Of a stretch of 64,000 bases of DNA, positions 16,204-63,200 are shown in pieces. This DNA is from Eledone cirrhosa (taxonomy: Eukaryota), in NCBI GenBank assembly GCA_964016885.1, contig OZ024741.1:203174001-203238000 (forward strand), read 5' to 3'. The translations under genes were made by a program, and so were the position numbers. The notes below the pieces were generated by a model. The model made no database searches and was not told the DNA's origin. It worked only from the letters and a program-made list of their open reading frames with translations. Position 1 is the stretch's first letter, and every line of letters starts with the position of its first letter.

Positions 16204-16248
16204 GTGACAAACGTTTCGTCGCACTGTCTGCGACGTGGTCACTGACAC
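16204..16248 (-). ncRNA. Minimal type I hammerhead-like motif with G3:C8 core
   Basis: Reverse complement: gtgtca GTGACCA c gtcgca-gacag-tgcgac GAAA CG TT tgtcac. Confidence 0.5.
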
Positions 16249-16499
16249 AGTTCCACTGCAACTGAACAGTTTCCGTGTGTTTTCGATGGCTAAAATTACT
16301 CTACATGCGATGTAATTGTATTAGATCAATTCATTTGCTAGACATTTACAATTGTGGCTAAAATGACTCATCCTCGATGTAATTGCTAAATGGAATTCAT
16401 TGTTACACGTTGATACCTTAGTGTTCCAGTCCGTGCTTGTGGTTTATATAAAGACAAACAAACACACACACAGAATGGAGCGGGAACATCACTGATATA

Positions 16500-16890
16500 T
16501 CGACGTAAATCCTTGCACAGACCGCAGAGACGGCAAGCGCTTCGATGGAATCACCCTCTTCCCATTCAAAGGAGGTAGATCCTTCTTCTGAGACGCCACA
16601 TATTGTGACATGTTCTCTGCCTCTAACTTCGGCCACAAACCCCGGTATCGTGGCCCACCTTGCAGAAGAAAGGAAAATAAACAAATACTAGGTATTTGGC
16701 CGCTTCCTCTTCGCACCGGTCACTGTCGAGACCTCAGGCATACTTGGACCCCGTACTGTCGAGCTCCTCCACAAGATCGGAACGTCAACAGCCCGTCTTA
16801 GGTGGGAGCTCTGCGTTGTGGGGGAGGCTGTGGCAGCGGTTGTCGCTGGCCATTTTCTGTAGGAATGCTTTTGCGGTCTTGTCTGCGAAG
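16500..16890 (+). pseudogene. CRE-like non-LTR retrotransposon, RLE endonuclease fragment
   Basis: DGKRFDGITLFPFKGG..DAT and LWQRLSLAIFCRNAFAVL. Homologous to 60550-61047. Confidence 0.7.
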
Positions 16891-17329
16891 GGAAGCCCCA
16901 TTCCCTTCCTTTTCCTTTTTTTTTTTATATGCAGCTTATATGTAAAACGAGTAAAAATGCGCTGCCAGATACATATAAGAAGTAAGTGTTTAATGAATAT
17001 TGACTCTTTAGAATTCAAAGGTTACGGACCTACCAGCTTTTTACGTTTGTATATCTGTAATGTATTTCCTGTTCAAGAATAAATGTTATATGCATATATA
17101 ATAGTTTATCGTTTCTGTTTTGCATTTGAAAGTAGAGTACCAACCCTGAAATATTATGTTGAAATATACTGGGTAAAAAACATTACTTTGTTTTGTTTAG
17201 GTTTGTCACCTTTTGCCCTTTATATATTTCTACCCACTCTACCGTCTTACTGACATCTTTACCAATGAATTATTATATACCTCACAATGCTTCATATTAA
17301 CTATACTACTTTATTATATAATATGTATG

Positions 17330-60229: not shown

Positions 60230-60985
60230 TGTCAGGCAACAGGCCACTTTACGTGTCAGGTATGGCGGTCTTGGCCTCCGGTCCCCGATCTCACTGGCTT
60301 TGCCGGCGTTACTTTCGTCGGTAACCTCATGCTACGTGCTCGTCAGCAGGGTTCTTCAAAACACAATAGAACCCTCTGTGTTCAGAGAACGTGAGGCCGC
60401 CTGTGAGACGTGGGACCGGCTGGGACATAGCCCAGTAGACGTCCCTCCTCCTCCCTCTGCTGACGTCAAGTCCCCACAAAGAACTTGGGATGCCATCCAG
60501 TGCAGCCTGGCCTTAGACAGACTCACGCGCCAGCTCGACCAGCACCGCATTGCCTGTTTTCGTGCGGCCTCCACCCGCTTTCCTGTCACCACAGTGCCGG
60601 CCACCTTCCATGCCATGCTGCCCTCAACGAGGTCATAAAGCATGGCTTGGACGCTGCAGGCTTCCCTTCCCAGCTCGAGCCGGTGGGGCTGGACCGAGGG
60701 GGGGGGGGGGGGGGGGGGGGGGCAAAAGGCCAGATAGCATGACCATCTTCCCGTTCCGCGGTGGCAAACCCTTCGTCTGGGATGCCACTTGCACCGACAC
60801 TTTCTGCAGCCGCAACCTGGTGCAGTCTGCGACTAACCCAGGTTCTGCTGCACGTCGGGCTGAGGAGGCCAAACTCCTCAAATACCAGTCGCTCTCCGAC
60901 AGGTTTGCGGTTGTACCCTTGGCAGTGGAGACTTCTGGTGTCCTCGGCCCTATGGCTACCTCCTTACTCACCACCATAGGCGCTG
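60230..60985 (+). pseudogene. CRE-like non-LTR retrotransposon 3' region, deleted and frameshifted
   Basis: QATLRVRYGGLGLR, HAALNEVIK..LEPVGLDR and KRPDSMTIFPF..VWDATCTDT..AEEAK..KY..PLAVETSG. A poly-G expansion lies at 60698-60722. Confidence 0.8.
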
Positions 60986-62724
60986 AAAACTTGTATGTAT
61001 ACATACATAAACCTGTATATACACATTCCCAGATGTATATATATTGAGTAAGTCTGAAAGACCAAAGGTCATTATTGGAAGTCTCTGGATGTGTATATTT
61101 CGCAAGGTACTTTATAATTTTTACTGGAGAAGGTAAGAACGGGCACTTCTATACATTCACAATTATTTAAAAATTTTATTATAACATTCTGTATTTACAT
61201 TTGATATTATTGTATACTGCCAGTACTATGTACAGTATATATACACTATAATTAGTAAAAAAAATACACATTTTTTTCCACAAAAATTTGATTGCATTGT
61301 TTTGTTTCCACTTATGTATTTTTGAAAATGTTATTTATTCATCATAAAAATTAAATGATAGCAAATTATATTATCTCCTGGCAACCAATATTTTTAGACC
61401 CAATCCGCTACTGTATGTTTGTATGTATATACGTATGTCTGGTCACTCCTCAGCGCTACTGCTAAAATGTAACTCAATACAACCTGCGCATGATTGGGTC
61501 GTCGTCGACTGAACCGGTAAACCTACCAAGCTTGTTTCGCGAGGAGGAGGATTTCGGAGACCTGCGAGATGAAAAACAAAACCCGTCAATGGGCGGAGGA
61601 ACTTAGGAGAGTCAGCGGCCATCCAATAATTTTTTTTTTTTTTTTTTTTTGTAGGGCGAGAGACTCCTGATATAAAACCTGCGACTTCGTTTGCATCCAA
61701 TGATGTAAACCAGTTGTTCGTTTTGAATAAATGCATTCGATGTTCAGAAAGTGGGATTAGCCCTTTCCTCGCTTAAAAAAGCTTTTTATCAAGCACAGGC
61801 ATCGTTTGATATTTGACATTTTCTTTGGCATTGCTGGTCATAGGTAGGTAGGTCCTTAGCAGGATTAAAAGCTACGTCCGTAATGCTCATGCGTAAGTAT
61901 CAAGTGATGGCTTTACTCGGTATCGAGTTTCAGCTATCATGTATGAATGTATGTATGTGTGTATGTATGTGTGTGTGTATGTATGTATGTGTGTATGTAT
62001 GTATGTATGTATGTATGTATGTATGTATGTATGTATGGAAATACTCGGTATGGTGCTCGAGCGTGCAGTTAGTCCACCTGGAGTGCGAGAACCTTAGTTC
62101 TTATTAGGACCATTCTTGCAAAAGGAAAGCTCTGGAGTAAAACACTCGACTCGATGGCAGCAAATGATGTTGAACTGTTCTATTTGGATAACTATAACTG
62201 TTATTCAGGGAGTGGGATTGGTCAAGTGGAAGGCTTTACTTCAAGCGCAGGCATCACTTGATCTAAACGATTTTGACGTGTGTTGTCGAGCATTTCTTTC
62301 ACTGCAGCATATGCAGAAACGAATCTAAGTCCTTGACAGGGCTAACATGTCATGTTTGTGCTACCCATGTATGAGAAAAAGATTAACGGATGGCTATTCT
62401 CGAAAATGAGATGCACCAAGTATATATATATATATATATATATATATATATTTATATAATATATTTATATATATATACACGCGCAAATATATATACATAC
62501 GTACATATACACACACACACATACACACACACACACACACACACACACACACACACACACACACACACACACATATATATATATATATATATATATATAT
62601 ATATATATATATATATATATATATATATATATATATATATATATATACACATATATATATATATATTAGAAAGTGTGGTTTTTTTACAAAATGAAAAATA
62701 ACCGGTGTCCTCCACGAGTGAAAG

Positions 62725-63200
62725 TATAAAGAAAAAAAGATGAAATCGAAAATGCAACTGGAGTCTTATTTAAAAATATATATATATATTTATTTGGTTC
62801 CTTTACCGGTTTCGCAGTTATTCTGCTTTTCAAAAGTAGAGTTGGGATGGAGGGTTTGTGGTTTTTCTCACATCTGCTGCTAACACAGAAGGGAGCGGTT
62901 AAGCGAGGAAAGGGCCAATCCCACTTTCTGAACATCGAATGCATTTATTCAAAACGAACAACTGGTCTACATCATTGGATGCAAACGAAGTCGCAGGTTT
63001 TATATCAGGAGTCTCGAGCTCCACAATAAAAAAAAAAAAAAAAAAATTGCCAGATGTGAGAAAAACCACAGACCCTCCATTTCAACTCTACTTTTGAAAA
63101 GTAGAAGAACTGCGAAACCGGTAAAGGAACCAAATAAATATATATATTTTTTAAAAAATAAGACTCCAGTTGCATTTTCGATCTCATCTTTTTCTTTATA
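62725..63200. mobile_element. Inverted-repeat HHR element (arms 62725-62876 / 63051-63200)
   Basis: Arms of about 150 bp are reverse complements, each carries an HHR motif, and (TA)n lies nearby on both sides. Confidence 0.75.
62799..62838 (-). ncRNA. Type I hammerhead, U3:A8 core (sister copy at 63089-63128, plus strand)
   Basis: Reverse complement: tactt TTGAAAA gcag-aataa-ctgc GAAA ccgg TA aagga. Confidence 0.55.

Follow-up and report, generated by a model that had tools for sequence, protein, structure and literature searches.

In this work, we analysed the hammerhead ribozyme (HHR) motifs of a 64-kb stretch of the 3.0-Gb genome of Eledone cirrhosa (G000:C2:203174001-203238000, hereafter the window), which an earlier note had attributed to a diverse population of non-coding elements that use the machinery of Penelope-like elements (PLEs). 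The motifs fall into 11 multi-copy repeat families, designated A to K. Our reading, held with good confidence, is that five of them are truncated ends of coding PLEs and that four others, tandem units devoid of any open reading frame (ORF), were likely inserted in trans by PLE proteins, probably with both ends of a (TA)n cut serving as primers; the last two (H and I) may belong to either group. These elements are of a known kind with unusually clear footprints and do not form a new system, as had been proposed: the inverted layout is the published structure of PLE insertions (PMC3846280, PMC8557442, PMC11167929), and PLE-driven retrozymes have already been put forward (PMC7229834, bioRxiv 10.64898/2026.07.22.740005). 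What is new here is the finding of three non-coding families (A, D and G) with the full PLE footprint.

The window has a G+C content of 38 % and is rich in (TA)n and other microsatellites. It was scanned with a descriptor of the type I minimal HHR that accepted any Watson-Crick 3:8 pair, asked for a minimum of 4 pairs out of 6 in stem I and permitted one optional extra nucleotide on each flank of stem II; as control, the window was shuffled 60 times in blocks of 200 nt with dinucleotides preserved. Twelve matches were obtained, against a mean of 1.15 in the shuffles (sd 1.15, maximum 5), with a descriptor that had been loosened with the motifs already in view, its stricter first version giving 6 distinct sites; motif density is above that of shuffled sequence. 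Among the 15 motifs listed beforehand, 11 pass the descriptor (16242-, 20903-, 21101+, 22687+, 43119-, 49276+, 55046+, 55711-, 56148+, 62833- and 63094+) and four fail, namely those at 23.5 and 25.8 kb (family B), whose stem I has only 2 bp, and the decayed window copies at 45.8 kb (family G) and 52.4 kb (family H), families in which other members keep an intact motif. The twelfth match (61342-) lies in low-complexity sequence and is probably due to chance. A CUGACGA...GAAA string at 63270 (-) was discarded as an HHR, being without stem I, and an Rfam scan of the window gave no hammerhead among the best 150 of 212 matches, these 150 being microRNA-type or untranslated region (UTR) models on microsatellites and hairpins.

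Judged by their sequence, the motifs of the window are real and have the form of the minimal dimeric PLE-type HHR, with a CUGANGA/GAAA core or a compensated 3:8 pair, a short palindromic stem III and an NUH site; the exceptions to this form are family G, with a normal stem III, and family B, with its short stem I. All seven palindromic stem III sequences quoted earlier are indeed present, but the ACGT of the 16.2-kb motif is a single-copy variant and the 45.8-kb family has no palindrome. To delimit the families, the genome was searched with nine motif regions and with the protein of the 23.2-kb locus, and the 30 best-scoring loci of each family, i.e. not a random sample, were retained (designated by L numbers); first-look candidates for the DNA queries ranged from 204 (I) to 3092 (F), which are not copy numbers. 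Family J was assigned with the help of a locus that had been retrieved for a different one. In total, 7/15 motifs belong to truncated PLE ends, 6/15 to retrozyme-like families and 2/15 to H or I.

Families B, J, E, C and K (motifs at 23.5/25.8, 43.1, 62.8/63.1, 55.0 and 22.7 kb, respectively) are 5'-truncated ends of coding PLEs, as far as their sequence can tell. They occupy the window as follows, with proximal and distal 3' ends given as distances from the predicted ribozyme cut:

22603..22787, + strand: family K, coding PLE represented by its 3' end; carries an HHR at 22687 and an inverted 5' piece of 31 bp
23173..24429, - strand: family B, left arm; 5'-truncated coding PLE with an HHR-like motif at 23479 and a 57-nt tail
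24430..26073, + strand: family B, right arm; 5'-truncated RT-thumb/GIY-YIG ORF to 25557, UTR, an HHR-like motif at 25825 and a proximal end lying in (TA)n
42868..43196, - strand: family J, terminal repeat and tail of coding PLE B2; HHR at 43119
49112..49226, no strand given: family B, miniature head-to-head insertion of 115 bp; 93-bp antisense arm (proximal end) and 26-bp sense tail end
54502..54626, - strand: family C, left arm; tail and 40 nt, distal end +136
54623..55151, + strand: family C, right arm; 3' UTR of a Hydra-clade-like coding PLE with an HHR at 55046; the proximal end (+51) lies in (TA)n
62665..62876, - strand: family E, left arm; tail with distal end +144, U3:A8 HHR at 62833; the coding PLE of which it is the end has CX4CxxC as its linker
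63050..63200, + strand: family E, right arm with an HHR at 63094; the proximal end (+80) lies in (TA)n

Family B is a very young and abundant PLE. In the genome search, 136/136 scored protein matches were identical over 285 aa; full copies carry a frame of 1217 codons from stop to stop (1210 aa from the ATG) with an asparagine-rich insert, and loci L159 to L164 hold many open frames of 1216-1217 codons with this insert. Its unit measures about 4.13 kb (13 same-strand neighbours are spaced by 4110-4147 bp) and an HHR motif stands both before and after the ORF, i.e. the tandem arrangement with pseudo-long terminal repeats (pLTRs) typical of these elements. The ORF is 61 % identical over its C-terminal part to that of a relative, B2, whose 823-codon reverse transcriptase (RT)/GIY-YIG ORF lies in locus L151 and has weak Pfam matches for both domains; family J matches the terminal repeat and tail of B2 at 89 % over 341 nt. 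Copies of family E continue through a UTR of about 1.1 kb into RT and GIY-YIG ORFs with a CX4CxxC linker (Pfam GIY-YIG at 25.3 bits for a cut-off of 22.6, RVT_1 just under its cut-off). The ORFs of B and E both have the CX4CxxC and CCHH-type residues, while a CX2-5CxxC linker and a CCHH motif are traits of both the Neptune and the Nematis clade, and are only 27 % identical to each other over 174 aa.

In families C and K, an AT-rich UTR of 1.1-1.2 kb separates the HHR from endonuclease-like ORFs upstream, so that the HHR lies about 1.1-1.2 kb 3' of the ORF in C and K as in E. At locus L309, a K copy reaches through about 1.1 kb of AT-rich UTR a GIY-YIG-type C-terminus that is 43 % identical to the C ORF. 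The latter has a C-x-C-x5-C motif ahead of its GIY-YIG-like core and CxxC / CxH near its end, and 38/48 3' ends of the family are followed by a TA run. Family C, and K through its similarity to C, would accordingly present the traits of the Hydra clade (CxCX5C, no CCHH, (TA)n), the CxCX5C linker of which is described in section 11 of PMC8557442. A single ORF combining a PLE-type RT with a GIY-YIG domain at its C-terminus was found for B, J/B2, E, C and K (for C and K by motif or similarity only), and the same set displays the inverted 5'-truncated copy and one-sided tail of endonuclease-bearing (EN+) PLEs. The claim that only the 23.2-kb locus codes for protein is correct inside the window, but the families of the 22.7, 43.1, 55.0 and 62.8/63.1 kb motifs reach or flank GIY-YIG/RT ORFs elsewhere. 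Since C and E are coding-PLE ends, the 54.6- and 62.7-kb "mini-elements" are not non-coding families, and neither are the 22.7 and 43.1 kb motifs; the refuting condition given in the earlier note, namely the pLTR of a coding PLE, thus applies to 5/11 families.

Families A, D, G and F (20.9/21.1, 55.7/56.2, 45.8 and 49.3 kb, respectively) are predicted to be ORF-less retrozyme-like units, present in the window as:

20754..21082, - strand: family A, left arm; more than one 318-bp unit, U3:A8 HHR at 20903, proximal end +144 in (TA)n
21082..21294, + strand: family A, right arm; HHR at 21101, distal (tail) end about +170 in (TA)n
45564..46016, - strand: family G, left arm; non-coding unit of ~496 bp, decayed HHR (45810), proximal end +184
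46035..46115, + strand: family G, right arm consisting of the tail alone; the distal end (+268) lies in (TA)n
49252..49531, + strand: family F, non-coding 842-bp unit represented by its 3' part; an HHR at 49276 and (TA)n to the left and right
55460..56001, - strand: family D, left arm exceeding a single 435-bp unit, with an HHR at 55711; proximal end at +221
56026..56455, + strand: family D, right arm with an HHR at 56148; the distal end (+276) lies in (TA)n

Within each family the sequence comes back to its own 3' end, at a distance of about 318 bp in A, about 435 bp in D, 842 bp in F and about 496 bp in G, lengths that equal the same-strand HHR spacing in A, D and F; in G, two same-strand HHRs occur at 0/30 loci and the unit is deduced from a tail that recurs 496 bp upstream (L196, L212). 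The longest stop-to-stop frames of the units span 65-112 codons, and blastx of the units against five PLE ORFs gave a sole match of 16 residues (E=0.095). Short non-coding units with a type I HHR in tandem, the hallmark of retrozymes, are therefore found in all four families, with the said qualification for G, whose HHR has an ordinary 5-bp stem III closed by a 6-nt loop. When folded as circles, one natural unit per family was more stable than 12-30 dinucleotide shuffles (minimum free energy z = -6.0 for A, -5.4 for D, -4.1 for F and -3.2 for G, with 59-65 % of nucleotides paired), D being aided by a TA-rich hairpin. An alternative would be that every family represents a coding PLE, by its pLTR or by a 3' end left after truncation, and that no non-coding population exists. 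Such is the case for 5/11 families; upstream of H lies a long stretch of AT-rich sequence, as in C and K, and most single minimal HHRs were read as truncated PLEs in PMC4209133. We nevertheless give this view hardly any credence, as head-to-tail junctions between units, present at several independent loci, refute it for A, D and F, six HHRs stand in one array of family D (L038) without a PLE ORF, the left arms of A and D in the window itself are longer than one unit, and the recurring tail is the counter-case for G.

Several observations on these units may be added. The 5' ends of F cluster at +695 to +699 in 5/27 copies (L166, L181, L186, L189, L194), ~145 nt before the cut site, where a transcription start or an RT stop is possible. 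F and G share an identical 8-nt 5' strand of stem I and a C at the cut, their units being otherwise without blastn similarity. Family D was met on contigs of three other organisms, in few sequences that were not counted as support; one variant among them, likewise not counted, has both sides of a stem I pair changed and a core intact except at N7. No RNA source was listed for family D, which speaks neither for nor against its transcription.

We then considered how these elements lie in the genome. The layout of antisense left arm and sense right arm described for five loci is seen at 20.7, 23.2, 54.5, 55.5 and 62.7 kb, and head-to-head arms also occur at 45.6, 49.1 and 16.2 kb. Across the genome, both 3' ends face outward at 19/28 loci of A, 20/28 of D, 17/29 of G, 19/29 of C, 18/28 of K and 10/29 of E, after removal of 1-3 loci per family with identical flanks, which may include distinct loci flanked by pure TA; neighbours of family B within 10 kb are arranged -/+ in 26 cases and +/- in 0. 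In every inverting family, the 3' ends fall at two fixed positions, which, counted from the predicted cut, are +144/+171 in A, +221/+276 in D, +184/+268 in G, +51/+136 in C, +80/+144 in E and +60/beyond +76 in K, while the two ends of B lie 24 and 81 nt into the ORF. In two-armed insertions, one arm carries the proximal and the other the distal end in 80/83 assignable cases, and in 41/42 for A, D and G (p about 2e-20 and 2e-11, respectively, against 50:50 and with end windows chosen post hoc). A TA run of at least 6 nt follows 216/301 3' ends, compared with 11 % of 9420 random locus positions and 7 % in the window; by family the share is 54-90 %, the value for K being too low as its reference lacks the full tail. 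The 16.2-kb copy is not flanked by (TA)n. The PLE families also nest in one another's (TA)n flanks (L062/L155, L176, L345).

Could these repeats be satellite DNA or units resembling miniature inverted-repeat transposable elements (MITEs), spread by a DNA route, or, for F, passengers of long interspersed elements (LINEs) akin to short interspersed elements (SINEs), with an incidental HHR? Family F is not inverted and terminates with a run of (ATT)n, the window contains LINE fragments as well as MITE-like repeats that are palindromic, and homology to the collected coding-PLE ends is missing. We regard this possibility as very unlikely, since the arms of A, D and G are unequal, variably 5'-truncated and bear two different fixed ends, unlike terminal inverted repeats, and their pattern equals that of the coding families C, E and K. 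Moreover, the 3:8 core pair is kept family-wide (paired in 42/43 copies of A, 50/53 of D, 31/31 of F and 30/31 of G), which argues against an incidental ribozyme. The footprint of two ends, one tail and head-to-head arms shared by the ORF-less families A, D and G with coding PLEs of the same genome is best explained by trans-mobilisation, of which it constitutes insertion-level evidence; the use of PLE machinery claimed for the whole population is in this sense upheld for A, D and G and is less certain for F, which is never inverted.

The junctions between arms bear on how the second arm arises. Among 110 junctions, 48 overlap by 0-3 nt, 9 by at least 4 nt, and 53 show a gap or extra bases; in the young family B, 11/13 overlap by 0-3 nt. 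In 35/62 insertions the arms are not nested, i.e. the tail-less arm extends further 5' than the tail-bearing arm, so neither arm was copied from the other, which favours priming from both break ends; the 23.2-kb locus is among these cases, as are 15/23 insertions of the coding families C and K. In a comparison that asked whether both arms stem from one RNA, divergence between the two arms is below that between loci in 9/10 cases for G, 7/9 for E and 3/14 for K, the values of A and D being spoiled by register errors. The rival account, in which the second arm derives from fold-back or self-priming on complementary DNA (cDNA) or antisense RNA, was proposed for rotifer Penelope from palindromes at inverted junctions (PMC3846280), and the 9 longer overlaps would suit it. 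It is in our view unlikely: it does not account for the non-nested arms, circular permutation offers no explanation for them in C and K, the overlaps in B are mostly very short, and both strands were extended in vitro (PMC11167929). The arm geometry fits priming from both break ends, as the earlier note had inferred.

Between the E arms, the spacer 62877-63049 is not E sequence: 62899-63048 matches 61628-61776 at 95 %, and this repeat, which includes a poly(A) run, is also present at 29.2 and 35.4 kb. It suggests a template switch or a nested insertion at the junction.

We propose the following cycle, its insertion steps being modelled on the anole PLE, which in vitro cuts and extends both strands and starts at two sites by which the tail is defined (PMC11167929). 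A tandem copy would first be transcribed. The HHR may then cut or circularise the RNA, probably as a dimer formed through the palindromic stem III, as published work would indicate. A PLE RT/GIY-YIG dimer would cut both (TA)n strands, and each 3' end would prime cDNA at one of two fixed sites 3' of the HHR; here the fixed ends and TA flanks are observed and the priming is what we infer. Finally, both cDNAs would be truncated and their far ends joined, either overlapping by 0-3 nt or with a few bases added, to yield the head-to-head structure with a one-sided tail that is observed in the genome. The ribozyme step appears to be the weakest link of this cycle, because HHR cleavage is dispensable for insertion in vitro (PMC11167929).

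Other points, too, weigh against priming from both break ends by PLE proteins. According to the same article, no RNA ends of the anole PLE were seen at the cut site in vivo, and 8/9 frog retrozyme dimers did not cleave (bioRxiv 10.64898/2026.07.22.740005). Arms are nested in 27/62 insertions, including 9/9 of E, which fold-back copying would equally produce, and 20/103 two-armed insertions could not be assigned to the post hoc end windows. Family F shows inversion at 0/27 loci and a single end region, with (TA)n at 20/27 of its 5' and 19/27 of its 3' flanks; having one 3' end and no inversion, it has a less certain driver and may use another one. No donor PLE emerged for the non-coding units, blastn of A, D, F and G against the five collected coding ends giving no meaningful similarity. 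Lastly, the ORFs of B and C had no Pfam match, for which reason C and K are assigned by motif reading and pairwise similarity; B is taken as a PLE on its motifs and its similarity to B2.

Compared with known systems, the coding families resemble EN+ PLEs in their RT and C-terminal GIY-YIG ORF, partial tandems, inverted 5'-truncated copy, one-sided tail, (TA)n, palindromic helix III, extra nucleotide after A9, U3:A8 pair, opposite-strand motif pairs and, for B, the N-rich ORF insert. Minimal HHRs with a palindromic helix III, U3:A8 and an extra nucleotide after A9 were reported in pLTRs by Cervera & de la Pena in 2014, who interpreted opposite-strand HHR pairs 100-700 bp apart as truncated PLEs (PMC4209133), and natural U3:A8 and U10.1-U11.1 are given in section 8 of PMC3088659. 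In 2021, Craig described how Hydra and Naiad elements target (TA)n, together with the tail on one side, the 5'-truncated copy in inverted position and the non-autonomous Chlamys elements (PMC8557442). Nothing essential distinguishes B, C, E, J and K from EN+ PLEs, the tails here measuring about 27-85 nt instead of 30-40.

The non-coding families share with metazoan non-LTR (long terminal repeat) retrozymes the low-GC (35-40 %) non-coding units with one type I HHR, found as monomers to short tandems, the co-existence with PLEs, the strong self-pairing of the predicted circles and the proposed mobilisation by PLEs. Animal retrozymes were defined by Cervera & de la Pena in 2020, with PLEs named as likely drivers, on canonical HHRs (PMC7229834), whereas A, D and F carry minimal HHRs with a palindromic stem III. 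Families A, D and G are mostly dispersed as head-to-head insertions with two fixed (TA)n ends, which do not appear in the portions of the retrozyme descriptions compared, and, unlike the retrozymes of Li, Clavereau & Pollet (2026), A, D, F and G show no pLTR homology to the five collected coding-PLE ends. Chlamys MRC1 (Craig 2021) and the Adineta solo-pLTRs (Arkhipova 2013) are likewise non-coding sequences with PLE ends, arranged as pLTRs and tandems, that are moved in trans, as is likely here; Chlamys elements are mostly without HHRs and their 3' end generally resembles that of an autonomous partner, and no such partner was found here among the collected ends. We found no paper uniting "retrozyme", "head-to-head" and "Penelope" in the literature searched, which did not extend to Luense et al. 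2017 or the supplements of PMC4209133 and PMC8557442; in the passages compared, an octopus repeat-annotation paper (PMC13282606) makes no mention of hammerheads.

Until now, the case for PLEs as movers of animal retrozymes was built on co-occurrence and on homology to pLTRs, as argued in the bioRxiv report, which leaves the mechanism open. The increment over print consists of insertion-level evidence for PLE use by retrozyme-like units, a near-strict end pairing and a G3:C8 family. The end pairing and the non-nested arms constrain the mechanism by which PLEs form their inverted ends. For PLE specialists this is a useful confirmation with testable detail, about half of the material being ordinary truncated PLE ends, and the young family B with its intact ORFs is a ready source for a transposition assay. 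A bolder view, which we entertain only tentatively and with somewhat more doubt than belief, is that the retrozymes here are true PLE passengers which encode both RT start sites, each used once per two-armed insertion, and thereby reveal an asymmetric PLE dimer priming both (TA)n break ends; that an old family has fixed a natural G3:C8 pair, so that C:G, U:A and G:C all occur in one 64-kb window; and that B, with its many intact ORFs, makes the model directly testable.

The old families H and I (mostly 82-89 % identity) are represented by three features:

16154..16266, - strand: family I, left arm; old family, G3:C8-core HHR with position 3 at 16242
16265..16390, + strand: family I, right arm; sense 3' part, partly duplicated
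52165..52544, + strand: family H, old; the window HHR (52429) has lost U16.1, with at least 700 nt of AT-rich sequence upstream

Position 3:8 is occupied by C:G in families B, C, D, F, G, H and K, as in the single window copy of J, by U:A in A (42/43) and E (38/38), and by G:C in I (26/31). The exact pattern of family I was found in 7 copies, against 0 in the control, and its stem III is most commonly AATT (11/31), the ACGT of the 16.2-kb copy being seen in 1/31. A family-wide G3:C8 core is a difference from published EN+ PLE HHRs: no natural G3:C8 family was found in the literature searched (exclusive of supplements and of Luense et al. 2017), which yielded only engineered double mutants, section 8 of PMC3088659 giving U3:A8 as the sole natural variant. 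By a looser test, head-to-head arms are present at 19/36 loci of I and 9/30 of H. No PLE ORF is joined to family I at any of 36 loci, and a second search of H with upstream sequence gave no continuous ORF; a GIY-YIG ORF beside one H copy was ruled out as its own, as it belongs to a separate nested element. At L245 (1702-2121) lies a tandem of an ~84-bp piece from the 3' part of I, the same piece that is partly duplicated at 16265-16390 of the window.

A further (TA)n-flanked family is present at 45325-45564, 49621-49818, 51570-51942 and 56453-56713, and at 821-1010 of L214. Its 5' part is GC-rich and palindromic, its 3' end is fixed and the descriptor detects no HHR in it; it could be another PLE-driven or rolling-circle passenger. 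MITE-like long hairpins adjoin HHR loci at 20036-20241 (99 % self-complementary) and 22808-23087 (85 %), and a short resemblance to the tail end of family B at 63255-63270 adjoins the rejected CUGACGA...GAAA string. Broken non-LTR retrotransposons were recognised at 2.0-6.0, 17.3-19.4, 28.0-29.0 and 35.8-36.6 kb, with RT and AP-endonuclease fragments and, in a second family with several copies, RT and zf-RVT matches. Finally, two minisatellites occur at 38248-39002 (34 bp, 22 copies) and 57276-57547 (37 bp, 5.5 copies).

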